From Candidatus Kuenenia stuttgartensis (GTDB lineage: Bacteria > Planctomycetota > Brocadiia > Brocadiales > Brocadiaceae): DNA of 32,000 bases. The DNA lies in assembly GCF_900232105.1 (NCBI RefSeq), contig NZ_LT934425.1, forward strand, positions 30,001 to 62,000, read 5' to 3'. Within the stretch, counting starts at the first letter, position 1. Every line of letters starts with the position of its first letter. The notes below the pieces were generated by a model that ran no database searches, was not told where the DNA came from, and worked only from the letters and a program-made list of their open reading frames with translations. The translations under genes and the position numbers were made by a program. Positions 13,287-30,730 of this stretch are shown one piece after another.

Positions 13287-13307
13287 AATGCAACACGAAT
13301 GTTTTGA

Positions 13308-14239
13308 ATGGATGATGCAATGAATATCAATGCAAGCATTATTGACCAAAGGGTTGCGGGCATCATTGAAGACCATACGGATTGGCTACCGACCGGAAGC
13401 GACATTAACAAAAAGGGGTCTTCTGCATTTGTGCTACTGTGCATGTCAACATGTCTTGATATTCCCACGGAGGAGACCGCCGAATTGCTCACCGAAGGCG
13501 GAAATGATGCCGGGGTTGACGGTCTTCATGTGGGTGAGGTTGATTTCATCCATTTTAATCACGATTCGATTGTTCACATCTTCCAACGAAGCAGAAGGTG
13601 GACGCCAGCCTGACCTTGAACTGCCAAGCCATTGTGGAGGACATGAATTACATGCGCGTGCTGGTGGGCCGCGTTTCTGTTCAAGAGATTCACCGCATAT
13701 TTAATTACCACGGTGATAAACTGCTGGAGCGTAATATTCGCCGCTATCTCGGACTTCACACCAGCCGGGTAAACACCGCAATCCACGAAACGCTGTGCGA
13801 TCCTCAGAAGTCGGACAAATTCTACTTTTACAACAACGGCATTACCGTGGTCTGTGAAAAATTTGATTACAACGCATTTCAGAAATTTGACTACAAGGTG
13901 CAAATCAAGAATATGCAGGTGATTAACGGCGGCCAGACCTGCAAGACTATTCAGAAAACACTGAATAAGCGGTCGTTGTTTCCCAATATGATCGGCGAAT
14001 CCGCCTATGTGATGATTCGTATCTATCAAATTTCCTATGAGGAAGCAGTAGATAAGGAGTATGAGAAGCACTACGACTTTCAATCAGAAGCCGTCCGTGC
14101 CGGGTTCGGGAAATCCTGGCAGGAACGCGACTATAACATCATCGTCGCCGTGGCTGACAATATCCCCAACAACGTCCTCGAAGAAGATCCCAAGCTGCTC
14201 ATGTGGTACGACCAGGCGGTAACCAGGATGGGAGATTGA
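13308..14239 (+). pseudogene. AIPR (abortive-infection phage resistance) domain gene, split by a frame change and about half the usual family length
   Basis: Frame A (13308-13613) encodes an AIPR-type N-terminus: SSAFVLLCMSTCLDIPTEETAELLTEGGNDAGVDGLHVGEVD...IVHIFQ. Frame B (open from 13559, track ORF 13598-14239) carries the AIPR core: LLERNIRRYLGLHTSRVNTAIHETLCDPQKSDKFYFYNNGITVVCEKF...VQIKNMQVINGGQTCKTIQ. The two frames join sensibly only with a 1-nt correction near 13585-13586. Confidence 0.6.
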
Positions 14240-14246
14240 ACCACGA

Positions 14247-16082
14247 ATGGACAAGAATGAACACGAATTCATTTCGCTGGTTGATCTTGGCATGGCCTAT
14301 CGCAAAGCAAAGGCTGACCTTTTTTATTCTCCTAGGGCATGCAGGAAAGCTTTGTCTGCTTTAGAGTTAAGACTATCGAAGAAGCTCGTGGCACTTCAAA
14401 ATAAGCTTACTAAAGGAGAAGCACCGTCTGTTTCAAGCCAAAAGTGGACACTGGTTCCTAAAGAGATTAAATACGAAGAATTTAAAACAGAACAGATCAG
14501 TTCTGATCCACAACACCTTTGGGACTCAATCTGCAAACATGAGAACGTTAATTCGAGGAAAGTACAGGCGGAATTCCGGCTGATGGAGAAGCTGTCTATC
14601 GAATTTCATGTTTTTGCAGCACTCTGGATTAACAAAATCGGTCATAAGTTTGAAGCTAAACTAACGACCTCCGCTCGAGGAAATCGTCTCCGGCGGAACA
14701 AAAACGGCAAAATCAACACCCTTTCGCTTGGTTCAACCGTTCCTTACTTGTATGCTTACTGCAAATGGCGCGACGATGCCTTCGTTGCCATGGAGAATGC
14801 CTTGGAGCATGAAAAGTCGGTAGTCGCTATTACCGCCGATGTCACCTCTTTTTACCATAAACTCGATGTCCGCTTCATGCTCAATGATCACTTTATTAAG
14901 CGGATCGGTGTTGAGCTGGATAATGATGAAAAGAAGCTCCATTCCCTGTTCATCACTGCGCTTTATCAATGGGCAAAAAAAACTCCTCTCAAACGAGGGC
15001 TGCCCGTTGGTCTTACAGCATCTTCGGTCATTGCCAATGTGGCGTTGTTTGAACTGGACGGGCTTTTCGAGCGTGAAATTGTGCCGCTGTATTACGGACG
15101 TTATGTAGATGACATCATTCTTGTCATGGAAAACGGGGCGAATTTCAAGAGATCCGTCGAGATATGGGATTGGCTAGTTGCGCGTATGGATAAAGCGTTG
15201 AGATGGAAAGATGAAAAAGACAAAAAGGAGTTGCAATACACTCAGCCATATCTTGATGGCAGCGAAATCATCTTTGCCAACAAAAAGAATAAAACATTCC
15301 TGCTTTCAGGTGCGAGTGGTCTTTCCGTGCTGAAATCCATTCAGCATGAGGTTCAGATTCGTACCAGTGAGTGGCGCGCATTGCCCGCTCTACCTGGCAA
15401 CAGCACCCAATTGGAATCCATGCTACTGACCGCGATTCAAAGAGATGGCATCTCGGCCGATAGTCTGCGTAAAGCTGATAAAGTTTCGGTGCGGCGCGCC
15501 GGTTTTGCGCTCAAGCTGCGAGATATCGAGGCCTATGCACGAGCACTGTCCCCTGATAAATGGCAAAAACAACGTCACTCGTTTCTAACCGCCTTTATCC
15601 GCCATGTTCTGGTGCTGCCGACCTTCTTTGATTTCTACAACTACCTGTCACGCATACTGATGCTTGCGGTTAGCTGTGGCGATTTCGCCCATCTGCGCAA
15701 GATGCTGGATGCCTTGGAAAAGATATTGATGCAACTGGAAGACTGCGATATAAGTATCAAGGCGCAACCGAAGAGCAGGTCACGAATAGAGAAACCCATA
15801 TCTCTAGTATCGGAACACTTCCAAAAAAAGCTGAAGACAATCTTCTGTAAAAATCTGAAGACAATCATCTGTGAGTCCATCGAATGCGCTTATCCGTTGC
15901 GGCTGACCCGGGAATCGAAGACACTTTGGAGTACACATTTTGATGAGAATCATGATCTCTATATACCTCAGCCATTTCGAAAGATTCAGGCACGGCACCA
16001 GCGATACCTGAAGCAGGACCTGGCGCACAGTCCACTGAAAACATGTTTGTTGCAACCCGCTGCTAAGCCCCACAATAAATGA
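14247..16082 (+). CDS. Stand-alone reverse transcriptase of the Abi/UG (defence-associated) type; last 6 codons and stop are supplied by the transposon end
   Basis: RT palm motifs: VVAITADVTSFYHKLD (catalytic D codon at 14838-14840), GLPVGLTASSVIANVALFELD (14997-15047) and YGRYVDDIILV (YVDD at 15102-15113). About 300 aa of helical-looking C-terminal extension follow, with no maturase X motif, no endonuclease and no retron-like flanking non-coding DNA. Starts 7 nt after the AIPR gene stop. Transposon identity begins at 16061, inside codon GCT (16059-16061). Confidence 0.75.
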   Translation: MDKNEHEFISLVDLGMAYRKAKADLFYSPRACRKALSALELRLSKKLVALQNKLTKGEAPSVSSQKWTLVPKEIKYEEFKTEQISSDPQHLWDSICKHENVNSRKVQAEFRLMEKLSIEFHVFAALWINKIGHKFEAKLTTSARGNRLRRNKNGKINTLSLGSTVPYLYAYCKWRDDAFVAMENALEHEKSVVAITADVTSFYHKLDVRFMLNDHFIKRIGVELDNDEKKLHSLFITALYQWAKKTPLKRGLPVGLTASSVIANVALFELDGLFEREIVPLYYGRYVDDIILVMENGANFKRSVEIWDWLVARMDKALRWKDEKDKKELQYTQPYLDGSEIIFANKKNKTFLLSGASGLSVLKSIQHEVQIRTSEWRALPALPGNSTQLESMLLTAIQRDGISADSLRKADKVSVRRAGFALKLRDIEAYARALSPDKWQKQRHSFLTAFIRHVLVLPTFFDFYNYLSRILMLAVSCGDFAHLRKMLDALEKILMQLEDCDISIKAQPKSRSRIEKPISLVSEHFQKKLKTIFCKNLKTIICESIECAYPLRLTRESKTLWSTHFDENHDLYIPQPFRKIQARHQRYLKQDLAHSPLKTCLLQPAAKPHNK

Positions 16083-16098
16083 ACCTGGAATTCTCAGA

Positions 16099-16401
16099 TT
16101 AAGTGGAATTAATATATTGAGGTAAAACGGATTTTAGCAGATAGACAGCATCTGGGAAAGAGGAGTTGGAATCTACCATGACGATGTCGATGGTATTAAA
16201 GTTTTTTTTACAACGGAAACACCTGGCGAGGTTCGTATTTGGGTTGGTGGCGGAATTAAATTCAGAACAGAGAGGGCAGAGGAAGCGGAAATAGCCTTCG
16301 GAGTATTTATGAGGTATGGAGAGGACATCAGCGATGAGTCGATCGATGGGGATATCGTTTCGTAATGAGCGCAAGAGTTGAGGGGAAAAGAGACGGGCCA
16401 T
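16099..16401 (-). CDS. Transposon gene 4: small CHC2-like zinc-finger protein
   Basis: 100 aa with an AGGAGG SD. FRFLCPLCSEFNSATNPNTNLARCFRCKKNFNTIDIVM resembles the primase-type CHC2 finger (CP.H.E..PS......... .C..C...G..I.F). Its stop lies only 38 bp from the transposon end. Confidence 0.55.
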   Translation of the reverse strand: MARLFSPQLLRSLRNDIPIDRLIADVLSIPHKYSEGYFRFLCPLCSEFNSATNPNTNLARCFRCKKNFNTIDIVMVDSNSSFPDAVYLLKSVLPQYINST

Positions 16402-16412
16402 GGTAGACCTCC

Positions 16413-17204
16413 TTAAAAAGATTGAATTTCAGCAAGAGCCTGATGGAAGATATCCTGGGTAATTTTCTGTGATTGTCTGATGGAAGCGTTAATCAGGCAG
16501 GCGGTGGAAATGGCGTTGATTTGCCTTGGGATGCCGGCGGAGAACTCATGGATCAGGTCTTTGACGTCTGAGTCAAAGATTTTATCGGATGCGCCGGAAG
16601 ATTTCAGATGGAAGTCTATGTATGCAGCGGTTTGAGTTTTAGTAAGGGGATGAATGTGGTAATGTACCGAGATGCGTTGTGCGAAGTCGGCATGGATGTC
16701 TCTTTTGAGGATATATTTGAGGTGTTCCTGTCCCGAGAGGATGATTTTGAGATGAGTGGAAGAATCAAGCGGAGAGCTGACAAGGAGTCTGAGGTCTGTG
16801 ATGGCGTCGGTTTTCAGGAGATGAGCCTCGTCGATAACGATAATGGGAGTGAGATTTGAGCGCAAGGATTTATCCATAATTTGGAGGAAGAGCCGGTCTT
16901 TGGTGTGTTTTGGTATTTCACCGAGCTGGGAGACGATTAAGGAGAGAAGGCTGGATGATTTTAGGTGGGTAAAATGGAGGTAGATGGGGAGAAACAGGTT
17001 TTGGGGGATTTGTGAGAGGAAGAGTTTGAGGAGTGTGGATTTTCCGACTCCCGTCTGTCCGTAGAGGACGGCGATAGAGCCTGAGTGTAAGAGGTATTGG
17101 AGTCGTGCAAGCCCCTGGGTAAAGCGTTCGTCTTTCATGATAAGGCTGGTGTTGATTCTTTCAGAGAACGGCTGAGTAGTCATGGAAAAATGAGAAGTAA
17201 ACAT
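16413..17204 (-). CDS. Transposon gene 3: AAA+ ATPase (ExeA/TniB/TnsC-like transposition ATPase)
   Basis: 263 aa. The N-terminal FSMTTQPFSERINTSLIMKDERFTQGLARLQYLL is ExeA-like. Walker A is LYGQTGVGKST and Walker B is PIIVIDEAHLL. It starts 3 nt after the transposase stop. Confidence 0.8.
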   Translation of the reverse strand: MFTSHFSMTTQPFSERINTSLIMKDERFTQGLARLQYLLHSGSIAVLYGQTGVGKSTLLKLFLSQIPQNLFLPIYLHFTHLKSSSLLSLIVSQLGEIPKHTKDRLFLQIMDKSLRSNLTPIIVIDEAHLLKTDAITDLRLLVSSPLDSSTHLKIILSGQEHLKYILKRDIHADFAQRISVHYHIHPLTKTQTAAYIDFHLKSSGASDKIFDSDVKDLIHEFSAGIPRQINAISTACLINASIRQSQKITQDIFHQALAEIQSF

Positions 17205-17206
17205 GG

Positions 17207-18767
17207 TTAAGAGACCTCCTTTTTCGAGTAAGCGATTTGTAATTCACGAATGATATAGGGTAAGGTTTTCACGGAGGCATTTTGGAATGCCTCCGTGAGC
17301 AATGATTCGTTGAGAGCGGGGATACGGTTGTAGCATTTTTTAAGCGATTCGAGTTCATGAGAGCTGAAGGCGGAGAGAGAGCCTTTGTGTCCCATGAGGA
17401 GTGCGAGTTTCTGGACGAATGCCATGAATGGCCAGGGTCGTTCGGAGATGATTTGGTGGTAATCAATGCCTTTGGCCTGAGCCTGGAGAATGGATTTGTG
17501 TTTCTGAGTGATAGGGTCGAGGTAATTATGTTTTGGTTTTGAAGGTGAGGCGGCTGGAGTTTCAGCGCCCTGGTCGCGCAGGTAGAGATTTCCCGAGCCG
17601 AGGTATTCACCGTTTGCGGAATAGATCAAGACCTTTTTGAGATCGCCGTATGGGTCGTAACGGACTTCTACTTTATCGCCTCTGAGTTTGGGGTCAACAC
17701 GGTAAAAGCGGTTATCAATGCGGACATCGGCAAAGGTTCTGTCAACGGTTCTGGGGATGCGTTTCATGAAGAAGGCAAGAGCGGCGTCCATATCGACGTG
17801 TCGGATGACGGTAAGCCCCTCGTCGTAGCGTTGTTTTGGAGATTGATTGGTTTCGGAGTGGATTCTTGCGTGATAGACAACGGCAAGGTAAGCGGAGAAG
17901 GCCTGGTTAATGGCATCAAGGGTGATAATGTCGCCGGAGCGGACTTCCGACTCGAACTGTGTCTGGCTGGTGCCGAAGAAACGTTCGACCAGTCCGCCGG
18001 GAGCAGGGTCGCGTGGTGGTCTGTGGATGAGTTTAATGCCGAGGTTGTAACAGGCAGAGCGCAGGGCGTCAGAGTGGTAGACCTTGGCATTGTCGAGGTA
18101 GAGTTCTTTGGGCGAGCCGTGGATAGTCCAGGCCCTGATGAGAGAATCGATAAGGATATCGAGGGTTTGTTTGAGATAATACCGTCCTTCGACCACATAA
18201 CGGCTGTAGCAGTCGATAAAGAGACAGAGGTTTGTGGGAAGCGCCTCGCCGTCAACGAGCACGAAAGGGCCTTCCTGGAAGTCGCCAATCCAGAGGTCGT
18301 GGGTATGCTCACGGCTAAGAGCGTATACGCACCTTTTGCTGTGAGACGCCGAGTTTGAGCCGGGTCGCCCCTGCGAGTCTGAGATGGCGGTAGAGGGTGG
18401 ATTTGGGGATCGTTTTCCCATAGTATTTCTCAAGAAAGCGGTTGAGGCAATCGTCGCTGCGGCGTGGTTGTTCTTTTTTGAGTTCAACGGCTTTGTCGAT
18501 AATTTCAGGAGAAAACCTTCTGGATGCGCCACGGTCGCTCCTCGCCTTTCTTGCAAGAGATTGAAATCCATCTTTGCGGTAGCGGTTGAGTTTTCTCCTG
18601 AGGGTAGAGATAGTGGGTCTTTTCCGCTTTCCGTTGGGGAATACGACCTCCTGAAGGCAGAGTTTTTTCAGAAAAAGGTTGGTCTGCTCCTTCTCAATCT
18701 CACCGAAGATGACAGGATGCAGAAGATTGCACCAGAATAAAGCCCATTTTTCGTCTTTCGATTTCAT
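17207..18767 (-). CDS. Transposon gene 2: DDE transposase (Mu A/TnsB/TniA-like), encoded in two overlapping frames requiring a +1 shift
   Basis: Frame 1 (18767-18315) holds the HTH N-terminal domains (ISTLRRKLNRYRKDGFQSLARKARSDRG...TIPKSTLYRHLRLAG). Frame 2 (to 17207) holds the DDE core (HDLWIGDF, LCLFIDCYSRYVVG, ELYLDNAKVYHS, GGLVERFF). It also holds a Mu-transposase-type C-terminal domain (VRIDNRFYRVDPKLRGDKVEVRYDPYGDLKKVLIY). This copy has no internal stop other than the frame junction. Confidence 0.8.
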
Positions 18768-18805
18768 AATTCACCTCCTTTTTTAAGTGTGGAGGTGATT
18801 GTAAC

Positions 18806-19444
18806 TCAAGACCAGCCGCTTTTTGTTGCCAGTTCGGGGAAAAATGAATGCCCAAAAATTCGGTGATATTCCGGCTCGGCGCTGAACAATTGAATCGATT
18901 GATCGAGGGAGGTTTTTCGTTGTTTGCTTTTATACTTTCCGTGGTAAATGGGAAACATTTGGCGAAAAACCGGAGAGTTGGGGTCGGCCTGCCTGATGAG
19001 GTCAAAGGCGTTGCGGAGTGTGTATTTCAGTGAGCCAAAGAAACGCAGCCACCTCCAAACGGTTGACCAGGCAAGCATGCGGTTGTCTATTTCCTGTGTT
19101 CGGGTAGTATATCCGATGGCAGAGGAGACACTCCGGTAGGTTTCTGTATCATCTTTGACATAAGCCTGACTGAAGGAGAGACAGTGATCCTTTACGTACC
19201 GCTTGTAAGGGAGCGCATACTCAGGATAGGAAGTAAACGTCTTCTTGCACAAGGAACATTTCCAACGTCCCAGGAAAGATTCTATCGTATGAACAAGGGA
19301 GTCGATAATAACGTGAAACAACCGATATCTGCATTCATGAAGGGTGAAATTGACATGGGTACTCTTGCACTTTGGACAAAAGCATGGCTTCTGTTTTGTC
19401 GCAATAAGCTTTTCATGCTTGTGGATTTTTTCTATAATATTCAC
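18806..19444 (-). CDS. Transposon gene 1: zinc-ribbon protein of unknown function
   Basis: 212 aa, GTG start 6 nt after AGGAGG. Two CxxC pairs (CFCPKCKSTHVNFTLHEC...RWKCSLCKKTFTSYPEYALPYKRY). The pattern resembles transposase-adjacent DUF6431-type proteins from memory, so this is a low-confidence family call. Confidence 0.5.
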   Translation of the reverse strand: MNIIEKIHKHEKLIATKQKPCFCPKCKSTHVNFTLHECRYRLFHVIIDSLVHTIESFLGRWKCSLCKKTFTSYPEYALPYKRYVKDHCLSFSQAYVKDDTETYRSVSSAIGYTTRTQEIDNRMLAWSTVWRWLRFFGSLKYTLRNAFDLIRQADPNSPVFRQMFPIYHGKYKSKQRKTSLDQSIQLFSAEPEYHRIFGHSFFPELATKSGWS

Positions 19445-19850
19445 GCACTGCCTCCTTTGTATAGAGGGGAAATGGGCAGGAGGATGAAGTTTCCCAACGT
19501 TCGGTCCTCCTGCCCTGAGTTTTTTATGTTCCGGAAAAATCTTACAAAACTTGTCCTCGTGAAAACGGGGAACTGGGAAGTAAACCGCCGTTAGGAAGTT
19601 TGGAAGTGGTTTTAACCTCTTCCAAACTATTTAATGAGGCTTTACTCCGCCTTACGGACGGAACTTCTTTCTAACGGGGTAAACGATGTATTTTTCTTAA
19701 CGTGAACAAAAAATCAAGTGAAATACTTACGCAGGATAAAAAAAAGGCGGGGTAGCTGGGTAAGATTTTTCAAATCATTTGCTGGGTATTAGACTCAAAT
19801 ATTCTGAGACTAATTGGGCATTTTTGGAGCATTTATTCTAAGACGTAGCA

Positions 19851-20783
19851 TCTGGTGATGTCTCTGATGTTGTTCCTTCGGCAGGCTCAGGACAGGCTCT
19901 TGAGTTTGTTCAGTGATTTCGTGCTTATACCCTTATACTTGCCCTTGAAATCGTATCCGAGAAACCTGAAACCTCTTTCGAAGTTGGTGAGCTTGGTTTT
20001 ATCCTCGCTCAGCTTCATTCCAAGTTTCCCTGCAATGATTTCTTTGACATAGCTGAGGGCGGCTGGGAGTTCATCTTTTGTTTTAGTCATGACAACGAAA
20101 TCATCGGCGTATCGGACAAACTTATATCCAGCCTTTTCAAGTTCCTTGTCGATGATGTCACCGATAAGGTTTGCAAGCAAAGGGGAAATGACGCCTCCTT
20201 GCGGAGTGCCTTTGTTTGTCTCGTGCACGATGCCGTCCTCCATGACCCCTGCTTTGAGCATGTTCTCAATACTGTTCAAAACCCATCCATCAGCGATTTT
20301 CTCACGTAAGGAGTCCATAATAAGCTTATGGGGTATGGTGTCATAGAATGCCATTATATCGGCATCAAGGACGCTGGTATACCCTTCCTGCTTATACTGT
20401 TCAAGCCGTTTGATAGCATCGTGACAGCATCTGTCAGGGCGAAATCCAAAGCTGTTATCTGAGAATCCTTTCTCAAATATTGGCTCTATGATTTGCCTGA
20501 ACGCCTGCTGTACAATCCTGTCCTTAACAATGGGAATGCCAAGAGGTCTCTTGTCATGCCTGCCTTTGGGGATGTATACCCGCAGGACAGGCGCAGGGTT
20601 GTATATGGCAGTCTTGAGTTCCTGATGGATACTCATGATATTCACATCAAGATTGGACTCAAATTGCTTAATACTTACCCTGTCAAGACCAGCTTTGCCT
20701 TTATTCTTCTTTACGTGTTTGAAAGCAGCATAAAGGTTTTTCAGACTAAACACCTTGTCTCTTAATGAATGATACTTAAGCAT
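19851..20783 (-). pseudogene. Group II intron RT (IEP) fragment lacking the maturase domain
   Basis: Track ORF 19887-20783 is identical in protein to 28017-28913 (RT domains 0-7, YADD). It has the same in-frame TGA (19889-19887). The reading frame is then cut by the transposon end at 19850/19851. Confidence 0.9.
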
Positions 20784-21154
20784 CTCTCGATATATTCCTT
20801 TCGATTGATTACGGATAATAGACTTGTCAATCGTGTTTCCTGGGTACGGATTCTCCCAAACATAGGCAAAAACAAGAGAGGCTCTTGTTACTGCTTACCT
20901 ACGCAAAAGAGTTTCTTTTCTCATTGAACGTATTCAATCTACCACTTTCATCAATTCCACTACGGTTATGCCCCTTTCATTTCCGATTCACACCGGAAAC
21001 TATTATGAGCAATGCTGACGACTTCAAAGATAGACTTGTGAGAGAAGCTTGTCTATCACCATCTCATACAGCTCGGACTTCGGAATTTCCTTATACCTTG
21101 CTGTTAGGGAATTTTGCCCAAGACGTAAGTCCTCCCCCGGTCATATGGATTACC
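19851..21154 (-). mobile_element. Internal fragment (1,304 bp) of a group II intron, truncated at both ends by transposon ends
   Basis: Reverse complement matches 27646-28949 of the fuller copy. I noticed two substitutions: copy 1 21123 a versus copy 2 27677 c (G vs D in the antisense-ORF translation), and copy 1 20254 t versus copy 2 28546 g (silent K codon in the IEP). Identity stops exactly at the transposon termini on both sides. Confidence 0.9.
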
Positions 21155-21560
21155 TGCTACGTCTTAGAATAAATGCTCCAAAAATGCCCAATTAGTCTCA
21201 GAATATTTGAGTCTAATACCCAGCAAATGATTTGAAAAATCTTACCCAGCTACCCCGCCTTTTTTTTATCCTGCGTAAGTATTTCACTTGATTTTTTGTT
21301 CACGTTAAGAAAAATACATCGTTTACCCCGTTAGAAAGAAGTTCCGTCCGTAAGGCGGAGTAAAGCCTCATTAAATAGTTTGGAAGGGGTTAAAACCACT
21401 TCCAAACTTCCTAACGGCGGTTTACTTCCCAGTTCCCCGTTTTCACGAGGACAAGTTTTGTAAGATTTTTCCGGAACATAAAAAACTCAGGGCAGGAGGA
21501 CCGAACGTTGGGAAACTTCATCCTCCTGCCCATTTCCCCCCTATACAAAGGAGGCAGTGC

Positions 21561-22199
21561 GTGAATATTATAGAAAAAATCCACAAGCATGAAAAGCTTA
21601 TTGCGACAAAACAGAAGCCATGCTTTTGTCCAAAGTGCAAGAGTACCCATGTCAATTTCACCCTTCATGAATGCAGATATCGGTTGTTTCACGTTATTAT
21701 CGACTCCCTTGTTCATACGATAGAATCTTTCCTGGGACGTTGGAAATGTTCCTTGTGCAAGAAGACGTTTACTTCCTATCCTGAGTATGCGCTCCCTTAC
21801 AAGCGGTACGTAAAGGATCACTGTCTCTCCTTCAGTCAGGCTTATGTCAAAGATGATACAGAAACCTACCGGAGTGTCTCCTCTGCCATCGGATATACTA
21901 CCCGAACACAGGAAATAGACAACCGCATGCTTGCCTGGTCAACCGTTTGGAGGTGGCTGCGTTTCTTTGGCTCACTGAAATACACACTCCGCAACGCCTT
22001 TGACCTCATCAGGCAGGCCGACCCCAACTCTCCGGTTTTTCGCCAAATGTTTCCCATTTACCACGGAAAGTATAAAAGCAAACAACGAAAAACCTCCCTC
22101 GATCAATCGATTCAATTGTTCAGCGCCGAGCCGGAATATCACCGAATTTTTGGGCATTCATTTTTCCCCGAACTGGCAACAAAAAGCGGCTGGTCTTGA
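21561..22199 (+). CDS. Transposon gene 1 (copy B): zinc-ribbon protein
   Basis: Protein identical to 18806-19444. Confidence 0.5.
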   Translation: MNIIEKIHKHEKLIATKQKPCFCPKCKSTHVNFTLHECRYRLFHVIIDSLVHTIESFLGRWKCSLCKKTFTSYPEYALPYKRYVKDHCLSFSQAYVKDDTETYRSVSSAIGYTTRTQEIDNRMLAWSTVWRWLRFFGSLKYTLRNAFDLIRQADPNSPVFRQMFPIYHGKYKSKQRKTSLDQSIQLFSAEPEYHRIFGHSFFPELATKSGWS

Positions 22200-22237
22200 G
22201 TTACAATCACCTCCACACTTAAAAAAGGAGGTGAATT

Positions 22238-23798
22238 ATGAAATCGAAAGACGAAAAATGGGCTTTATTCTGGTGCAATCTTCTGCATCCTGTCATCTTC
22301 GGTGAGATTGAGAAGGAGCAGACCAACCTTTTTCTGAAAAAACTCTGCCTTCAGGAGGTCGTATTCCCCAACGGAAAGCGGAAAAGACCCACTATCTCTA
22401 CCCTCAGGAGAAAACTCAACCGCTACCGCAAAGATGGATTTCAATCTCTTGCAAGAAAGGCGAGGAGCGACCGTGGCGCATCCAGAAGGTTTTCTCCTGA
22501 AATTATCGACAAAGCCGTTGAACTCAAAAAAGAACAACCACGCCGCAGCGACGATTGCCTCAACCGCTTTCTTGAGAAATACTATGGGAAAACGATCCCC
22601 AAATCCACCCTCTACCGCCATCTCAGACTCGCAGGGGCGACCCGGCTCAAACTCGGCGTCTCACAGCAAAAGGTGCGTATACGCTCTTAGCCGTGAGCAT
22701 ACCCACGACCTCTGGATTGGCGACTTCCAGGAAGGCCCTTTCGTGCTCGTTGACGGCGAGGCGCTTCCCACAAACCTCTGTCTCTTTATCGACTGCTACA
22801 GCCGTTATGTGGTCGAAGGACGGTATTATCTCAAACAAACCCTCGATATCCTTATCGATTCTCTCATCAGGGCCTGGACTATCCACGGCTCGCCCAAAGA
22901 ACTCTACCTCGACAATGCCAAGGTCTACCACTCTGACGCCCTGCGCTCTGCCTGTTACAACCTCGGCATTAAACTCATCCACAGACCACCACGCGACCCT
23001 GCTCCCGGCGGACTGGTCGAACGTTTCTTCGGCACCAGCCAGACATAGTTCGAGTCGGAAGTCCGCTCCGGCGACATTATCACCCTTGATGCCATTAACC
23101 AGGCCTTCTCCGCTTACCTTGCCGTTGTCTATCACGCAAGAATCCACTCCGAAACCAATCAATCTCCAAAACAACGCTACGACGAGGGGCTTACCGTCAT
23201 CCGACACGTCGATATGGACGCCGCTCTTGCCTTCTTCATGAAACGCATCCCCAGAACCGTTGACAGAACCTTTGCCGATGTCCGCATTGATAACCGCTTT
23301 TACCGTGTTGACCCCAAACTCAGAGGCGATAAAGTAGAAGTCCGTTACGACCCATACGGCGATCTCAAAAAGGTCTTGATCTATTCCGCAAACGGTGAAT
23401 ACCTCGGCTCGGGAAATCTCTACCTGCGCGACCAGGGCGCTGAAACTCCAGCCGCCTCACCTTCAAAACCAAAACATAATTACCTCGACCTTATCACTCA
23501 GAAACACAAATCCATTCTCCAGGCTCAGGCCAAAGGCATTGATTACCACCAAATCATCTCCGAACGACCCTGGCCATTCATGGCATTCGTCCAGAAACTC
23601 GCACTCCTCATGGGACACAAAGGCTCTCTCTCCGCCTTCAGCTCTCATGAACTCGAATCGCTTAAAAAATGCTACAACCGTATCCCCGCTCTCAACGAAT
23701 CATTGCTCACGGAGGCATTCCAAAATGCCTCCGTGAAAACCTTACCCTATATCATTCGTGAATTACAAATCGCTTACTCGAAAAAGGAGGTCTCTTAA
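22238..23798 (+). pseudogene. Transposon gene 2 (copy B): DDE transposase with the shared +1 frame break plus a copy-specific nonsense codon
   Basis: Same two-frame organisation as copy A (frame break within 22650-22690). In addition, TAG at 23046-23048 replaces the CAG of copy A (...FFGTSQT*FESEV), splitting the DDE core from the C-terminal domain. Confidence 0.85.
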
Positions 23799-23800
23799 CC

Positions 23801-24592
23801 ATGTTTACTTCTCATTTTTCCATGACTACTCAGCCGTTCTCTGAAAGAATCAACACCAGCCTTATCATGAAAGACGAACGCTTTACCCAGGGGCTTGCAC
23901 GACTCCAATACCTCTTACACTCAGGCTCTATCGCCGTCCTCTACGGACAGACGGGAGTCGGAAAATCCACACTCCTCAAACTCTTCCTCTCACAAATCCC
24001 CCAAAACCTGTTTCTCCCCATCTACCTCCATTTTACCCACCTAAAATCATCCAGCCTTCTCTCCTTAATCGTCTCCCAGCTCGGTGAAATACCAAAACAC
24101 ACCAAAGACCGGCTCTTCCTCCAAATTATGGATAAATCCTTGCGCTCAAATCTCACTCCCATTATCGTTATCGACGAGGCTCATCTCCTGAAAACCGACG
24201 CCATCACAGACCTCAGACTCCTTGTCAGCTCTCCGCTTGATTCTTCCACTCATCTCAAAATCATCCTCTCGGGACAGGAACACCTCAAATATATCCTCAA
24301 AAGAGACATCCATGCCGACTTCGCACAACGCATCTCGGTACATTACCACATTCATCCCCTTACTAAAACTCAAACCGCTGCATACATAGACTTCCATCTG
24401 AAATCTTCCGGCGCATCCGATAAAATCTTTGACTCAGACGTCAAAGACCTGATCCATGAGTTCTCCGCCGGCATCCCAAGGCAAATCAACGCCATTTCCA
24501 CCGCCTGCCTGATTAACGCTTCCATCAGACAATCACAGAAAATTACCCAGGATATCTTCCATCAGGCTCTTGCTGAAATTCAATCTTTTTAA
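23801..24592 (+). CDS. Transposon gene 3 (copy B): AAA+ transposition ATPase
   Basis: Protein identical to 16413-17204. Confidence 0.8.
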   Translation: MFTSHFSMTTQPFSERINTSLIMKDERFTQGLARLQYLLHSGSIAVLYGQTGVGKSTLLKLFLSQIPQNLFLPIYLHFTHLKSSSLLSLIVSQLGEIPKHTKDRLFLQIMDKSLRSNLTPIIVIDEAHLLKTDAITDLRLLVSSPLDSSTHLKIILSGQEHLKYILKRDIHADFAQRISVHYHIHPLTKTQTAAYIDFHLKSSGASDKIFDSDVKDLIHEFSAGIPRQINAISTACLINASIRQSQKITQDIFHQALAEIQSF

Positions 24593-24603
24593 GGAGGTCT
24601 ACC

Positions 24604-24906
24604 ATGGCCCGTCTCTTTTCCCCTCAACTCTTGCGCTCATTACGAAACGATATCCCCATCGATCGACTCATCGCTGATGTCCTCTCCATACCTCATAAAT
24701 ACTCCGAAGGCTATTTCCGCTTCCTCTGCCCTCTCTGTTCTGAATTTAATTCCGCCACCAACCCAAATACGAACCTCGCCAGGTGTTTCCGTTGTAAAAA
24801 AAACTTTAATACCATCGACATCGTCATGGTAGATTCCAACTCCTCTTTCCCAGATGCTGTCTATCTGCTAAAATCCGTTTTACCTCAATATATTAATTCC
24901 ACTTAA
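24604..24906 (+). CDS. Transposon gene 4 (copy B): CHC2-like zinc-finger protein
   Basis: Protein identical to 16099-16401. Confidence 0.55.
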   Translation: MARLFSPQLLRSLRNDIPIDRLIADVLSIPHKYSEGYFRFLCPLCSEFNSATNPNTNLARCFRCKKNFNTIDIVMVDSNSSFPDAVYLLKSVLPQYINST

Positions 24907-24922
24907 TCTGAGAATTCCAGGT

Positions 24923-25018
24923 TCATTTATTGTGGGGCTTAGCAGTTAAGCCTTTCCCGCTCATCTCTGCCTTGATTTTCGGTTGTCTTTTGCTGTATTT
25001 TTTTGCTATATTCTTCAT
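24923..25018 (-). CDS. Small Lys-rich ORF cut by the transposon end; candidate (truncated) RiPP precursor leader
   Basis: My own translation; the ORF is below the track size cutoff. ATG at 25018, with AGGAG 13 nt upstream. It reads MKNIAKKYSKRQPKIKAEMSGKGL up to the junction at 24945, then runs into transposon DNA (TAKPHNK*). It lies 79 nt downstream of the PqqD-like gene on the same strand. Confidence 0.25.
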   Translation of the reverse strand: MKNIAKKYSKRQPKIKAEMSGKGLTAKPHNK

Positions 25019-25097
25019 CGAAATGGTGAATCTCCTTTCAGGTGTTTTTTGTTATCAATATACCGCCGAATACCTTGGAAATCCTACCATTTCAATC

Positions 25098-25325
25098 CTA
25101 TTCCTGCAACAAGGCTTTGCCTTGTTTGCAGGATTTAGGTTTAATTATTTCGCTTATCTCTCCAACCGTAAGACCGCTACTGAACATTTGCCAGATCCGC
25201 AGTCCTGTTTCATTTAAGGTGAAGTACATCTTCGTGCCCAGATGGAGAAGGACGGCCTCTTTGCCCTCTAATTCAGTAATAACAACATCAGGGTCAGGCG
25301 TTACCCTATAATTTAACTCCAGCAT
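25098..25325 (-). CDS. PqqD-family peptide-binding protein (RiPP recognition element), C-terminally short
   Basis: 75 aa with a strong SD (AAAGGAGG). DPDVVITELEGKEAVLLHLGTKMYFTLNETGLRIWQMFSSGLTVGEISEII matches the PqqD/RRE pattern. The last ~14 codons are encoded by a hairpin (25101-25130) and do not look like the usual PqqD C-terminal helix. Confidence 0.7.
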   Translation of the reverse strand: MLELNYRVTPDPDVVITELEGKEAVLLHLGTKMYFTLNETGLRIWQMFSSGLTVGEISEIIKPKSCKQGKALLQE

Positions 25326-25470
25326 CTTTTATCAACCTCCTTTTCAGTATTTCTCGTAATTATTCAATATGAAGTGAAAGACCTCCCATCCCTTCCTATC
25401 TGCGAAGGAGGGGAGATAAGAAGTCCCCCCTTCAAGAGGGGATTTAGGAGTGTGTTTAATAATCTTGATA

Positions 25471-26502
25471 TTATGCAAATATCACTTCCGTCCAAACCAT
25501 GCGAGACCAGGGGTTTCCCGAAAACTCTTTCAGCCAGTCTACCTTCTTAAAATAATTCAAACAGAACCAACAGGGAAAATAATCTGAATCTCTAAATTTA
25601 CCATTGCTGTAGTGTTCAAGCTTCTCTTTTTGAAATTTCCCACTAGCCTCAACCAAACTTACATAAGCCTCAGAAAAACTCATCTCATTCAAATTGCCTA
25701 TTATATCATCGTTTCCCACATCTTCTCCATGTCCCGATAAATTACAGCACATGGTGACATTGCCTCGCCAGTCGATGTTAATCTCTTCCATTTTAAGCGA
25801 AGCGCAAGGAAAGAGTTCGGTCGTATAGTATCCCGATGCCATAACAATAGGAATGGAAAATGTTTTCTGGAGCTGACAGATGATAGTTTCTGTTTGCCTT
25901 CTTTCTATCGGCGAAATGTCCATATTTTCTGATACGATTCGGGGAGTTGAAATAAGATGGCCAAGCCTGAGTCCCCGGCCTCCCAGTTTTGCTGCAAGCA
26001 TGGCTATTTCATTTAATTCACCCCGACTGTGGGACGTAATGACCGTATTGAAGGTGAAGGGAATATCTTTTACCACGCAAATGCTTACTGCCTGCATCAC
26101 CCGGCGATACGAACCCTTTCCACGAAGCATGTCATGTGTTTCCTCCCTTGCACCTTCTAAACTAAAGGTAATTCCAGTAAGACTATTAAGATGCGGGAGC
26201 AACTTCTCATAAATTCGGGTAAAATTCCAACCATTTGTTACAAAGCCAAAGTTATATCCAGCTTCTGATACCATCGTGAGCATCTCGGTAAATCCGGGAT
26301 GCAACGTTGGCTCTCCGCCAGTAAAGGAGATGTAATCAAAGCCATGCCCCCTGGCATTCCGGAGAATTCTTTCTAAGATTTCTATTTTCAGGTCTCCGTC
26401 ACCACTATGCCTTCCATCAAGGCAATGATGGCAACTTAAATTACAGCGATTGGTAAGTTCTATCAATATTCCCGGCATTGTAGTATTACTGTATAAAAGC
26501 AT
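25471..26502 (-). CDS. Radical SAM enzyme with SPASM/twitch-like Cys-rich C-terminal domain (peptide maturase type)
   Basis: 343 aa. CxxxCxxC cluster ELTNRCNLSCHHCLDG (Cys codons between 26445 and 26422). SAM-binding FTGGEPTLHP. C-terminal Cys groups are FPCAS, GNVTMCCNLSGHG and YFPCWFCLNYF. Confidence 0.8.
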   Translation of the reverse strand: MLLYSNTTMPGILIELTNRCNLSCHHCLDGRHSGDGDLKIEILERILRNARGHGFDYISFTGGEPTLHPGFTEMLTMVSEAGYNFGFVTNGWNFTRIYEKLLPHLNSLTGITFSLEGAREETHDMLRGKGSYRRVMQAVSICVVKDIPFTFNTVITSHSRGELNEIAMLAAKLGGRGLRLGHLISTPRIVSENMDISPIERRQTETIICQLQKTFSIPIVMASGYYTTELFPCASLKMEEINIDWRGNVTMCCNLSGHGEDVGNDDIIGNLNEMSFSEAYVSLVEASGKFQKEKLEHYSNGKFRDSDYFPCWFCLNYFKKVDWLKEFSGNPWSRMVWTEVIFA

Positions 26503-26943: not shown

Positions 26944-27326
26944 ATGAGTAAAATAGCAGCAAGAAAATATAACAAGATATTGAGAAGAAAGAAACGGAAA
27001 ATAGAGAAACGGTTAAAGAGAAAGCAATGGGGAGATCAGAAGCATCCGATGTTCACGGCAAAGAACATTCATTACGAGATAGCCGCGAATAGCCAGGCAA
27101 TTGCCTGTGGTGGTATAGGCGTAATCCATCAAATGGCAATAAGAAGTGGATTGGTAAAAGAGATAGACGAGAATCTTGAGTTACTCAAAAGGCATATACC
27201 GTATCATGAATCGGATCATATATTGAATATAGCGTACAATGTGCTTTCAGGGAATGTGCGGTTAGAAGACATAGAGTTGCATCGGCAAGACAGCGGCTAT
27301 TTGGATGCGTTGGGTGCAGAGCGGAT
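26944..27326 (+). pseudogene. IS1380-family-like transposase, N-terminal fragment (~127 codons)
   Basis: ACGGIGVIHQMAIRSGLVKEIDENLELLKRHIPYHESDHILNIAYNVLSGNVRLEDIELHRQDSGYLDALGAER fits the N-terminal pattern I associate with IS1380-type transposases (...L.GG.RLEDIE.LR.D......LG.ER-IP.P.T). Family-like sequence stops at ~27326. The remaining track-ORF residues (CALKYGIPEWLKIPPLRA*) look like read-through into other DNA. No DDE domain is found anywhere downstream. Confidence 0.55.
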
Positions 27327-29360
27327 GTGTGCCTTGAAGTATGGAATACCTGAGTGGTTGAAAATACCACCTCTGCGAGCCTAATCCTCGTAGAGAAGTT
27401 TGTGCCTATGCGCACACAATGGAGCAATCCGTATGCGTAGAAAGATAGCATATACCCGTGAGGGGTATGACGGAGTTACGAGGTACAGACGACCTTTTGG
27501 GGTGTATGAGTGTGGCGTGTTATTCCGTGCCAACTGCCATTTCTCAGCGAAGCACTGACAATGTCCTTTGTTGGAGATGGATAAACAGATTAAGTAAAAC
27601 CATCTCTGGTTAATGCGTTTGAACATACATCACGAAGGGAAAAGGGGTAATCCATATGACCGGGGGAGGACTTACGCCTTGGGCAAAATTCCCTAACAGC
27701 AAGGTATAAGGAAATTCCGAAGTCCGAGCTGTATGAGATGGTGATAGACAAGCTTCTCTCACAAGTCTATCTTTGAAGTCGTCAGCATTGCTCATAATAG
27801 TTTCCGGTGTGAATCGGAAATGAAAGGGGCATAACCGTAGTGGAATTGATGAAAGTGGTAGATTGAATACGTTCAATGAGAAAAGAAACTCTTTTGCGTA
27901 GGTAAGCAGTAACAAGAGCCTCTCTTGTTTTTGCCTATGTTTGGGAGAATCCGTACCCAGGAAACACGATTGACAAGTCTATTATCCGTAATCAATCGAA
28001 AGGAATATATCGAGAGATGCTTAAGTATCATTCATTAAGAGACAAGGTGTTTAGTCTGAAAAACCTTTATGCTGCTTTCAAACACGTAAAGAAGAATAAA
28101 GGCAAAGCTGGTCTTGACAGGGTAAGTATTAAGCAATTTGAGTCCAATCTTGATGTGAATATCATGAGTATCCATCAGGAACTCAAGACTGCCATATACA
28201 ACCCTGCGCCTGTCCTGCGGGTATACATCCCCAAAGGCAGGCATGACAAGAGACCTCTTGGCATTCCCATTGTTAAGGACAGGATTGTACAGCAGGCGTT
28301 CAGGCAAATCATAGAGCCAATATTTGAGAAAGGATTCTCAGATAACAGCTTTGGATTTCGCCCTGACAGATGCTGTCACGATGCTATCAAACGGCTTGAA
28401 CAGTATAAGCAGGAAGGGTATACCAGCGTCCTTGATGCCGATATAATGGCATTCTATGACACCATACCCCATAAGCTTATTATGGACTCCTTACGTGAGA
28501 AAATTGCTGATGGATGGGTTTTGAACAGTATTGAGAACATGCTCAAGGCAGGGGTCATGGAGGACGGCATCGTGCACGAGACAAACAAAGGCACTCCGCA
28601 AGGAGGCGTCATTTCCCCTTTGCTTGCAAACCTTATCGGTGACATCATCGACAAGGAACTTGAAAAGGCTGGATATAAGTTTGTCCGATACGCCGATGAT
28701 TTCGTTGTCATGACTAAAACAAAAGATGAACTCCCAGCCGCCCTCAGCTATGTCAAAGAAATCATTGCAGGGAAACTTGGAATGAAGCTGAGCGAGGATA
28801 AAACCAAGCTCACCAACTTCGAAAGAGGTTTCAGGTTTCTCGGATACGATTTCAAGGGCAAGTATAAGGGTATAAGCACGAAATCACTGAACAAACTCAA
28901 GAGCCTGTCCTGAGCCTGCCGAAGGAACAACATCAGAGACATCACCAGACGTACACAGGGCGTCAATCTGCAAGCCATTGTTGATACATTAAACCCTGTA
29001 ATTCGTGGGCATGTCAACTATTTTCGGCTGGGCAATGTACAAAAGGTATATCGCTCATTAGACTGTTGGGTACGCATGAGACTGAGATGTTTCAAGTTCT
29101 CAAGAAAATGGAGAACAGACAACAAGCGTTTCCCTGTTCACCGATTCTTTAAAATGGGGTTACTCTCATTCGAAAGAGAATTTCTTAAGGCGTGTGCTAA
29201 AGCATGATGTTTGACTTTTCTCTGTTATAGAGCAACACTTCGGGGTCGCTGACTACGAGAAAGACGTATGGTTTAAAAAGGATGCTTTGTCACGTTGTCC
29301 AAAGTATCTGGCGACGAGTGGGGGTTGGAGGCTAATGGCCTCCAGCCTACCAGCTATAAC
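27327..29360 (+). mobile_element. Group II intron, fuller copy (ribozyme boundaries approximate)
   Basis: The firm part is 27646-28949 (matches the inverted fragment) plus the IEP ORF to 29207. The 5' end is proposed at GTGTG (27327-27331), exactly where the IS1380-like reading frame loses family resemblance and ~690 nt before the IEP start. The 3' end is unresolved, between 29208 and ~29388. A strong hairpin at 29322-29348 followed by AC is a possible domain VI / 3' end. I could not confidently fold domain V. Confidence 0.6.
28017..29207 (+). pseudogene. Group II intron-encoded RT/maturase (no endonuclease domain) with an in-frame TGA
   Basis: RT domains: RVYIPKGRHDKRPLGIPIVKDRIVQQA, VLDADIMAFYDTIPH, GTPQGGVISPLLANL and VRYADDFVVM. 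The maturase X domain lies in the same frame after TGA 28911-28913: IRDITRRTQGVNLQAIVDTLNPVIRGHVNYFRLGN. The stop is at 29205-29207. Confidence 0.85.
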
Positions 29361-29388
29361 GTTTCATTAAAATATCTACATTGATACC

Positions 29389-29469
29389 GTCATTGCGAGC
29401 GACAGCGAAACAATCTTGAGTTTTTTTGGAAACAAGAGATTGCTTCGTCGCTCCACTCCTCGCAATGAC
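29389..29469. repeat. REP/MITE-like 81-bp imperfect palindrome (cattgcgag...ctcgcaatg type)
   Basis: gtcattgcgag (29389-29399) is the exact reverse complement of ctcgcaatgac (29459-29469). The inner arms cgacagcgaaacaatcttg / caagagattgcttcgtcg are imperfectly complementary. It accounts for the spurious track ORF 29426-29665. Confidence 0.7.
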
Positions 29470-29654
29470 ATTTTTTTACGTACACATTTTAACGAAACGA
29501 TGTACTAAATATGAGTATGACGCCCAAAACAGGTTTTGTAATAGTTCAACACCTTCCTCTAAACTAATAAGCGCTAGATTGTTTTTAATATTTTTTATAT
29601 GGAGTCCAATATCGAAAATAGGCAGTCGGCAGTCAAATTCTAAATTTTACCCTT

Positions 29655-30422: not shown

Positions 30423-30607
30423 ATCTGTAACTTGCTACAACCAACACAAACCATTCTTTCCGTCAAAATATGAAACGGTAAAATACGCTTCTTCAGTATA
30501 TCGCTTGCTGCGTTTTCGGAGGGCGGTTAAGAATGGCACAATCATCAGGAAGGCAAATATTGGAACTTACTAATAAGTTGAGGTTTTTATAACAACTTCC
30601 ACAGTAC

Positions 30608-30656: not shown

Positions 30657-30730
30657 GTACAGCAGAACGGTCAAGTTTTTAGAAATTCAGCGGTAATTTA
30701 ATTATAGTGGGGGCTGAAAATCATCGGCCC

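Follow-up and report, generated by a model that had tools for sequence, protein, structure and literature searches.

The locus examined here raises the question of how two oppositely oriented copies of one transposon came to enclose a piece of a group II intron. The window, by which we mean the whole stretch of 32,000 nucleotides analysed (positions 30,001 to 62,000 of contig NZ_LT934425.1 of Ca. Kuenenia stuttgartiensis), was subjected to a repeat search and base-by-base comparison, which delimited inverted arms at 16060-19850 and 21155-24945, position p of one pairing with position 41005-p of the other. Both termini of the element begin with TGCTA, so the outermost C/G pair (16060/24945) is a coincidence and the limits of the elements proper are those given in Table 1. 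The inner ends of the two copies both correspond to the TGCTACGTCTTAG terminus, and the outer ends to the TGCTAAGCCCCAC terminus. This geometry agrees with that described in the initial annotation, as do the flanking 5-mers (cccgc/tctgg for copy A and ttacc/gttaa for copy B). The same end (TGCTACGTC) faces the 1,304-bp segment between the arms, as expected of a single duplicative inversion. The arms differ at four positions rather than the three originally counted (copy A positions 17514, 17959, 19465 and 19618), all of them transitions; the difference at 17959 results in Q205* in the transposase of copy B, and that at 17514 in P353L.

Pairing the flanks in every combination, with a slack of ±2 nt and with the ends reset from more than 12 other copies, revealed no duplication of 3-9 bp, whether direct or inverted; the initial annotation had proposed this check as a possible source of matching duplications. 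The unit as a whole likewise lacked a direct target duplication (acccgc versus gttaag; no match of 3-9 bp, same slack), and reciprocal flank matches, in which the outer flank of A is the reverse complement of the inner flank of B and the inner flank of A that of the outer flank of B, were absent for n = 3-9. The arrangement therefore fits neither a single simple nor a single composite insertion, there being no duplication in any configuration, nor a single duplicative inversion, as had been claimed from the outset.

Table 1. Features of the inverted transposon pair and its surroundings (window coordinates, strand in brackets).
Feature	Position, or position in copy A	Position in copy B	Remarks
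Defence-type reverse transcriptase (RT) ORF	14247..16082 (+)		beside AIPR gene
Transposon copy A	16061..19850 (-)		3,790 bp; genes on - strand; outer (L) terminus 16061, inner (R) terminus 19850
Transposon copy B		21155..24944 (+)	reverse complement of copy A
Outer terminal inverted repeat	16061..16085 (+)	24920-24944 (-)	TGCTAAGCCCCACAATAAATGAACC
CHC2 (DnaG-type) zinc-ribbon protein	16099..16401 (-)	24604-24906 (+)	100 aa
AAA_22 ATPase	16413..17204 (-)	23801-24592 (+)	263 aa; ExeA/TniB/TnsC-like class
DDE transposase ORF	17207..18571 (-)	22434-23048 and 23214-23798	rve + Mu-transpos_C; uninterrupted in A, broken in B (Q205* at 23046-23048)
HTH_32 protein	18315..18767 (-)	22238-22690 (+)	150 aa
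Zinc-ribbon protein	18806..19444 (-)	21561-22199 (+)	212 aa; weak DUF6431 match
Inner terminal inverted repeat	19826..19850 (-)	21155-21179 (+)	TGCTACGTCTTAGAATAAATGCTCC
Internal group II intron fragment	19851..21154 (-, sense)		intron nt 321-1624; RT part of intron-encoded protein at 19887-20783
IS1380-family element "K" (1,719 bp), terminal 196 bp	24945..25140 (+)		positions 1523-1719; links outer end of copy B to truncated PqqD gene
Radical-SAM/SPASM gene and 5' part of PqqD (lasso-peptide B1)	25098..26502 (-)		IS K interrupts PqqD at 25140/25141
Full-length copy of the same intron	27326..29355 (+)		2,030 bp; lies within another transposase gene of the IS1380 family, 26944-27384

The 25-bp terminal repeats of the element are imperfect, the inner and outer repeats agreeing at 17 of 24 positions. 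The transposase is split over two overlapping frames in all copies; the HTH_32 gene and the transposase ORF, the latter in the +1 frame, overlap. The DDE ORF gave Pfam matches to Mu-transpos_C (3.6e-10) and rve (1.5e-6; 28.8 bits, below the Pfam cut-off of 32.6), and its closest solved relatives were TnsB chains (E = 6e-5, residues 147-319). The ATPase (AAA_22, 5.4e-21) adjoins the transposase, as AAA+ regulators of the MuB/TnsC/TniB class do in the Mu/Tn7/Tn5053 superfamily; TniB- and TnsC-specific models gave no match to it, and no relative was found by sequence in the PDB. No match to TnsA, TnsD/TniQ or the TniR resolvase was found among the five ORFs of the 3,790-bp element, and a search of the element ends for subterminal repeats of the terminal motif, of the transposase-binding type, yielded none. 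The 3.79-kb element appears to be an active transposon of the Mu/Tn7/Tn5053 superfamily. Its gene content, with neither TnsA nor a resolvase, suggests that it may transpose replicatively.

The segment between the arms is the reverse complement of 27646-28949, with three differences, and the junctions with the transposon map to 27645/27646 and 28949/28950 of the full-length intron, which extends beyond the matching piece on both sides; the original identification of the spacer as an intron piece devoid of both ends was thus correct. The limits of the intron were set from nine other full copies. It is a discrete multicopy element, with at least 10 full copies sharing fixed boundaries in different contexts. 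The copy in the window has 5' GTGTG at 27327-27331, nucleotide 27328 being polymorphic (T/A) among copies. The intron-encoded protein matched TIGR04416 (339.6 bits; cut-off 300) and GIIM, the maturase X domain (1.3e-16), and its two parts are divided by an in-frame TGA (28911-28913) in all intron copies. A strong terminal hairpin with a bulge was seen near the 3' end, with no canonical domain V recognised there, and Rfam searches at gathering and relaxed thresholds (E ≤ 10) gave no group II match.

Every component of the locus is a multicopy repeat, and short-read assemblies do not resolve the region, their contigs breaking at the transposon ends (54-140 bp inside the outer end). Such a picture might arise from a long read that is chimeric or folded back, or from an assembly that took the wrong route through collapsed transposon-intron-transposon repeats, and the initial annotation had named read support for the four junctions as the point at which an assembly error would come to light. 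The same architecture, with all four junction sequences, was found in two other long-contig assemblies, GCA_048500235.1 and the noisy, long-read-like GCA_015075145.1, which are 99.8% and 98.8% identical to the window. Three assemblies from different strains thus share it, and the outer junction of copy B recurs in a fourth (GCA_900232175.1, contig 153). A 611-aa protein, indexed in 126 blocks, spans the junction between the RT gene and the transposon, and the junction between the intron and the inner end of copy A is also present in a metagenome contig (L058). Moreover, the arms differ from each other, and the window and GCA_048500235.1 have in common an arm-specific SNP at element position 386, where A carries T and B carries C; foldbacks also lack a spacer bounded by exact transposon termini. 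An artefact is, on these grounds, scarcely credible, and the inverted pair is a real feature of the Ca. Kuenenia stuttgartiensis chromosome. Its existence and its age relative to the divergence of the strains are established.

The outer flanks have separate origins. The RT ORF runs into the outer end of copy A, which supplies its last 22 nt and its stop codon. On the other side, a sequence 100% identical to the window (L064) contains an IS K that is intact past position 1523 beside the 5' part of PqqD. This arrangement represents the pre-transposon state of the right flank, the IS K/PqqD junction predating the transposon junction. In strain CSTR1, the glnA-side backbone (~2.42 Mb) and the radical-SAM locus (~1.92 Mb) are ~0.5 Mb apart and the AIPR-RT module is absent; in GCA_027493735.1 the two flank sides are on different contigs. 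The earlier suggestion that the RT gene and the radical-SAM locus did not start out side by side is therefore well founded. A homologue search toward the PqqD 3'/lasso-B2 side gave a best match of 93% identity, the species' own protein not being among the matches listed. We also considered a mobile radical-SAM cassette marked by two IS1380-type elements (K and K') and rejected it: the IS beside the radical-SAM gene in CSTR1 is simply an insertion into the other IS, and the window shows no interruption of the latter at this point.

Four assemblies yielded 13 further copies that match copy A at 99.8% identity or more, giving 14 near-uniform copies altogether, and the termini do not vary among the copies examined. 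Clean insertions are flanked by target duplications of 6, 6 and 5 bp, so the short duplication foreseen in the initial annotation exists, although its length is not strictly 5 bp. Copies without duplications are the general case: the duplication is kept in only 3 of the 12 complete copies, among the copies listed. In two cases its halves were recovered at different copies. The sequence cttcac is split between the L end of one CSTR1 copy (L014) and the R end of another (L019), and accggg between the L end of L052 and the R end of L055 in GCA_048500235.1 (flanks compared by eye); in each case the two flanks map to adjacent positions of one IS. These split 6-bp duplications document flank exchange between transposon copies in these genomes, and most copies of the element have swapped or lost flanks. 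Insertions are mostly within other mobile elements (IS of the IS1380, IS110, IS4 and ISL3 types and the group II intron); all the transposon junctions within IS K are in one orientation, and 313 bp of IS K are duplicated on either side of one CSTR1 copy. A scan of a one-genome-per-species collection for both termini retrieved five contigs, from MAGs labelled Brocadia and Nitrospira, and no record of Kuenenia stuttgartiensis.

The reading that we prefer, with a probability of roughly 0.7, is that of a real inverted transposon pair around an intron piece, with a two-step origin and replacement of the outer flanks. The anatomy suggests that the transposon would first have entered one copy of the intron at nt 321-326, and that a second copy, in the opposite orientation, would have come to lie at nt 1619-1624, either by a second insertion or by duplicative inversion, i.e. 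intramolecular replicative transposition. The inner segment expected from either route is precisely the one observed, bounded by a single copy of each target. The SNP at position 386, common to the window and GCA_048500235.1, argues against arms that were born identical; it thus weakens the case for duplicative inversion and makes two insertions, or gene conversion at a later stage, more likely. Both outer remainders of the intron would then have been replaced, the left by the 3' end of the AIPR-RT defence module and the right by position 1523 of the IS1380-family element, already abutting the truncated PqqD gene. This replacement may have been caused by rearrangement seeded at transposon copies, through homologous exchange or further intramolecular transposition (inversion or adjacent deletion). 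The outcome would be four junctions with four unrelated flanks, and the juxtaposition of loci that are ~0.5 Mb apart in another strain. It is the order and enzymology of these steps that we infer.

Two other histories were weighed against this one. The 8.9-kb unit might have moved here whole by its outer ends, in the manner of Tn5 or Tn10, one or both flanks being altered afterwards. At its outer ends the same terminal repeat indeed occurs twice, intact and inverted, the two copies of the transposon flank a passenger segment as in composite elements, and copy A retains an uninterrupted DDE ORF. Nevertheless, no 3-9-bp duplication is common to the outer flanks, the unit occupies one and the same site, with the same flanks, in every assembly bearing it, the left and right flanks are contiguous in no genome examined, and the right flank lies within an IS whose junction with PqqD is older than that with the transposon. 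We therefore regard transposition of the whole unit as highly unlikely.

Alternatively, reciprocal homologous recombination might suffice: four simple insertions with duplications (two in the intron, one in the RT gene and one in IS K), followed by RecA-mediated inversions that swapped flanks, with no transposition-coupled rearrangement or deletion. The split duplications, both halves of which are kept in one genome (L014/L019 and L052/L055), are in line with this history, as are the opposite orientations of L014 and L019 on the CSTR1 chromosome, which inversion predicts, and the predominance of reversals among strain differences in the comparison covered by PMC7709395. No junction is lost in reciprocal exchange. 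Of the four partner junctions, however (L-end + (a)ccagacgtacac, L-end + (a)ttaccccttttcc, R-end + (a)cccgc, and R-end + (c)ttaac + IS K), the six copies recovered from GCA_048500235.1, the closest genome, contained none. The two intron-side partners were not found in a scan of JGI metagenomes (duplication of up to 6 bp allowed), a weak negative because only four contigs there carry any terminus of the element, and a scan of viral contigs for the reciprocal intron junctions gave nothing. The partners of five further IS K junction types were also absent among the copies listed; like the result for the four partners, this is not decisive. We consider purely reciprocal recombination possible, if doubtful. 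The initial annotation had envisaged opposed insertions into one intron copy followed by recombination; several steps are indeed needed, but the reciprocal junctions that it anticipated were not found among these copies and contigs, and deletion-type events are therefore equally possible.

Stable composite transposons, of which Tn5 and Tn10 are examples, likewise have inverted arms on either side of a kilobase-scale spacer. The pair resembles these elements in consisting of two inverted copies of one element around an unrelated segment, one copy having an inactivating transposase mutation, and in having a spacer of a size that stabilises the inverted repeat. With a 1.3-kb spacer and four differences between the arms, the structure is not a hairpin-prone palindrome, a reading that we rejected, and the claim of an unstable, perfect palindrome of notable persistence is unsupported. 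Unlike Tn5 and Tn10, the Kuenenia unit has no surrounding duplication and no sign of moving, its passenger is a dead intron fragment rather than a selectable gene, and its arms are 3.8-kb multigene transposons rather than IS.

There is also a likeness to the duplicative inversions and adjacent deletions that replicative transposons produce (phage Mu, Tn3-type and TnsA-less Tn7-like elements), in that the same end faces an inverted segment and direct duplications are lacking. The gene set is a further point of likeness: a DDE transposase with a Mu-type C-terminal domain and an AAA+ partner, without a 5'-end-cutting endonuclease. A single replicative event would, however, leave reciprocal inverted duplications, absent from the Kuenenia pair, and the replicative mode of the element is itself putative. 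The 5'-TG termini and short duplications (6, 6 and 5 bp, versus a fixed 5 bp) are those of the Mu/Tn7/Tn5053 superfamily, whereas TnsA, TnsD/TniQ and the arrays of TnsB-binding end repeats of Tn7-like elements are missing. The "res hunters" Tn5053/Tn402 (TniA-TniB-TniQ-TniR) are similar in their TniA-like transposase, AAA_22-class ATPase, terminal repeats of ~25 bp and duplications of ~5 bp, and in that the element sits mostly inside other mobile elements, in one orientation within IS K. They differ in that the Kuenenia element has no TniQ, resolvase/res site or TniB model match, carries two small zinc-ribbon proteins instead, and generates duplications of 5-6 bp.

At least 11 reversals separate strains CSTR1 and MBR1, and the flanks of the rearranged blocks are almost always transposase genes (Ding & Adrian 2020, PMC7709395). 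That study resembles ours in the organism, in the reshuffling of blocks between strains and in the transposase genes at breakpoints; it differs in describing a genome-scale pattern only, the passages considered here mentioning neither the element, its ends and duplications nor the inverted pair, and the terms "group II intron", "inversion" and "insertion sequence" being absent from its main text. The inverted pair does not bring a novel type of biological system to light; it is what repeated rearrangement by mobile elements ordinarily yields in a genome that transposons were already known to shuffle. For annotators, the RT gene, lasso-peptide cluster and intron at this locus are truncated remnants, the adjacency of which has no functional meaning. 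A more ambitious reading, which we consider rather unlikely, is that the element is an undescribed branch of the Mu/Tn7/Tn5053 superfamily, replicative without a resolvase, in which the CHC2 and DUF6431-like zinc ribbons would replace TniQ in seeking out other mobile elements, with a fixed orientation within IS K; it would then be the main engine of Kuenenia reshuffling, and the inverted pair a preserved product of intramolecular transposition. The finding pins a concrete, nearly sequence-uniform element, with exact ends and duplication lengths now known, to the breakpoints of the known genome plasticity of an industrially important anammox bacterium.

A repeat search of the window delimited two inverted arms, 16060-19850 and 21155-24945, separated by 1,304 bp. 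Each arm begins with TGCTA at both termini, which constitute an imperfect terminal inverted repeat of 25 bp; this sets the element limits where the initial annotation had placed them, and the additional base match at 16060/24945 is due to chance. Base-by-base comparison showed that the arms differ at four sites (copy A positions 17514, 17959, 19465 and 19618), all transitions, rather than the three initially counted. The spacer is the reverse complement of 27646-28949, with three differing positions. The flanks (acccgc and tctggt for copy A, attacc and gttaag for copy B) have no 3-9 bp repeat in common, direct or inverted, in any pairing, with 2 nt of slack allowed, consistent with the initial report of missing target-site duplications.

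Features of the inverted transposon pair and its surroundings (window coordinates)
Feature	Coordinates	Strand	Details
AIPR-RT segment	13292-16060		2.77 kb; frameshifted AIPR gene and RT
AIPR gene pieces	13308-13613; 13598-14239
Copy A	16061-19850	-	transposon
HTH/DDE ORF overlap	18315-18571	-	257 nt; DDE in +1 frame
A6 run	18474-18479		inside the overlap
Spacer	19851-21154		internal group II intron piece, intron nt 321-1624
TGA, spacer copy	19887-19889		reverse complement
Copy B	21155-24944	+	transposon
End of IS K	24945-25140		final 196 bp (K positions 1523-1719)
Interrupted IS1380-family gene	26944-27384		146-aa N-terminal remnant
Full intron copy	27326-29355
TGA, full intron copy	28911-28913		between RT and maturase parts
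Imperfect inverted repeat	29384-29470		cgtcattgcgagcgacagcgaaacaatc ... gattgcttcgtcgctccactcctcgcaatgac
Intergenic repeat	30572-30654		tandem heptamers (tacagtc, gccgatt) and inverted repeat
Outer terminal repeat			TGCTAAGCCCCACAATAAATGAACC
Inner terminal repeat			TGCTACGTCTTAGAATAAATGCTCC
Transposon ORF			212-aa zinc-ribbon protein; weak DUF6431 match
Transposon ORF			150-aa HTH_32 protein
Transposon ORF			454-codon DDE, overlaps HTH ORF; rve and Mu-transpos_C; closest solved relatives are TnsB chains
Transposon ORF			263-aa AAA_22 ATPase
Transposon ORF			100-aa CHC2 zinc-ribbon protein

The organism was identified by exact-protein look-ups as Ca. Kuenenia stuttgartiensis. The initial annotation had proposed checking support for the four junctions, and all four junction sequences recur, in the same architecture, in two other long-contig assemblies: GCA_048500235.1, which is 99.8% identical to the window, and GCA_015075145.1, which is rich in indels, like an unpolished long-read assembly. 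A fourth assembly (GCA_900232175.1, contig 153) joins the outer end of copy B to the same flank, and a metagenome contig (L058) contains the copy A intron/inner-end junction. Short-read contigs end 54-140 bp into the outer end of the transposon. The RT ORF extends 22 nt into copy A, and its 611-aa product, with these final transposon-encoded codons, is found in 126 indexed blocks of the collection. Element position 386 is a T in arm A and a C in arm B, in both the window and GCA_048500235.1. Given the repeated architecture and this shared arm-specific base, it is very unlikely that the inverted pair is an assembly artefact. The same base shows that the pair predates the split between the two strains, and that the arms have remained distinct.

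The arrangement had been described as a long perfect palindrome of notable persistence, but the arms are non-identical and lie 1.3 kb apart, so its persistence is unremarkable. This separated-arm layout is that of Tn5 or Tn10, and differs from a perfect palindrome prone to hairpins. Were the arms to recombine, only the spacer would be flipped, and its orientation is the same in all assemblies.

On the left, homology to CSTR1 (another Kuenenia strain) and GCA_027493735.1 ends exactly at 13291, directly after a TPR gene, and the AIPR-RT segment that follows is absent from this locus in both genomes. The two genes of this segment make up a defence-like module; the RT has weak Drt3a/retron-type matches. 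On the right, copy B abuts the end of IS K, a 1,719-bp IS1380-family element, the terminus of which adjoins the 5' part of PqqD, followed by a radical-SAM gene. The lasso-peptide-type cluster (rSAM, PqqD, B2 protease and so on) is intact in GCA_027493735.1, and CSTR1 carries the same IS inverted and displaced by 2 nt (window 25140/25141; positions 3191/3192 and 9013/9014 of the CSTR1 locus L018). In two read-set assemblies, one 100% identical to the window, the K beside the PqqD 5' part continues intact past position 1523 (the K/PqqD junction is intact in SRR7051044); this continuity shows that the K/PqqD junction is older than the transposon/K junction. In a divergent-allele contig (L063) with K oriented as in the window, the other K end adjoins unrelated DNA, so IS K has also lost its simple-insertion flanks. 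The two sides of the palindrome map to ~2.42 Mb and ~1.92 Mb in CSTR1, bearing out the proposal that the RT gene and the radical-SAM locus were not originally neighbours.

The limits of the intron were obtained from nine other full copies and the window's own copy as found in GCA_048500235.1, and they confirm that the spacer lacks both ribozyme ends. The 298-aa intron ORF scores 339.6 bits against the NCBIfam group II RT/maturase model, above its cut-off, and the following 97 codons encode a GIIM maturase domain. An in-frame TGA separates the two parts in every copy examined (ten full copies and the fragment). Identity among the copies is 99.5-99.8%, and they occupy many different sites, suggesting recent mobility despite the TGA, possibly through read-through, recoding or help in trans. 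At the intron 3' end (29205-29357), no Rfam domain V/VI or other group II intron model matched, even at E ≤ 10; when folded, this region formed a strong terminal hairpin, bulged close to the 3' end, and no canonical domain V. The intron may have an atypical ribozyme. The full copy splits an IS1380-family transposase gene, and the remainder of that element is not recognisable past the intron 3' end; in CSTR1, the same remnant is instead hit by IS K, at the equivalent of window 26974. An imperfect inverted repeat lies immediately downstream from the intron. A family of short intergenic repeats, ~80-83% alike, is represented in the window and on two other contigs (L058 3969-4069 and L044 1967-2067), with an Rfam match at chance level (E 1.1) at window 30608-30658.

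The transposon is 3,790 bp long, and none of its five ORFs encodes a TnsA-like nuclease, TniQ or a resolvase. This gene content places it in the Mu/Tn7/Tn5053 superfamily, outside every named family. The HTH/DDE overlap is present in 14/14 copies, and the full transposase may be produced by a programmed +1 shift or transcriptional slippage. One copy (L054, GCA_900232175.1 contig 48) is cut at element position 3215, in the ATPase gene; its L (outer) end is missing, and unrelated sequence adjoins the cut. The 14 copies, from four assemblies, have only 10 variable sites, suggestive of recent expansion.

At clean insertions the duplicated target is 6 bp (tgtagg, cctggg) or 5 bp long (ccgag), and a duplication is retained in only three of 12 complete copies. 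The duplication cttcac is split between the L flank of L014 and the R (inner-end) flank of L019, two CSTR1 copies ~1.3 Mb apart in opposite orientations, and accggg is split between L052 and L055 in GCA_048500235.1 (flanks compared by eye). The halves of each map to neighbouring positions of one IS, which shows that copies have exchanged flanks within the transposon. The missing duplications at the palindrome are thus the norm for this transposon here. Transposon flanks lie mostly inside other mobile elements. In CSTR1, a copy within IS K lies between direct duplications of 313 bp of K sequence (L018 4042-4354 and 8145-8457); this duplication replaces the usual 5-6 bp, and L053 has the same arrangement. 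Seven types of transposon junction were found in K (R ends at 1163 and 1424; L ends at 851, 1065, 1419, 1523 and 1652; loci L015, L018, L020, L022, L055 and window 24945), all oriented alike with respect to the IS, with simple insertion fitting only one pair. The single orientation and the mobile-element flanks could reflect targeting, shared ancestry combined with local rearrangement, or biased survival.

The inner junctions could have arisen when two transposons inserted in opposition into a single intron copy, or when one insertion was followed by a duplicative inversion with its target 1.3 kb distant. By either route, the inner segment would be bounded by the first base of one target and the last base of the second, and the junctions match this prediction exactly. 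The position-386 SNP coincides with a polymorphism in other copies, mildly favouring separate ancestries for the arms, or gene conversion at a later stage. The outer junctions require at least two further events, in keeping with the multi-step origin initially proposed. Reciprocal homologous exchange and transposition-coupled inversion/deletion leave the same flank patterns, differing only in the survival of partner junctions. The four partner junctions sought, GGGGCTTAGCA+(A)CCAGACGTACAC, GGGGCTTAGCA+(A)TTACCCCTTTTCC, AGACGTAGCA+(A)CCCGC and AGACGTAGCA+(C)TTAAC+IS K (GGGGCTTAGCA, L end; AGACGTAGCA, R end), were absent (0/4) from the six copies listed from GCA_048500235.1, and the two on the intron side were also absent from the contigs listed in a targeted metagenome scan. 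By comparison with Mu and TnsA-less Tn7-like elements, a Mu-type DDE transposase with neither a 5'-end nuclease nor a resolvase predicts copy-in transposition through cointegrates for this transposon. Given the shared flank patterns and the partner junctions unseen among these listed copies and contigs, we favour a mixture of transposon-seeded rearrangements as the probable source of the outer flanks, with no commitment to a particular enzymology.

The locus falls into familiar categories, as a mosaic of nested mobile elements and as an uncharacterised Tn5053/Tn7/Mu relative. The only reading with greater novelty, that the transposon moves replicatively and hunts mobile elements by means of a new targeting module, is unlikely. 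Ding & Adrian (PMC7709395) reported >200 transposase genes in Kuenenia and, between its strains, no fewer than 11 reversals, with transposases at block borders; the inverted pair provides a detailed instance of such rearrangements, with one responsible element named.
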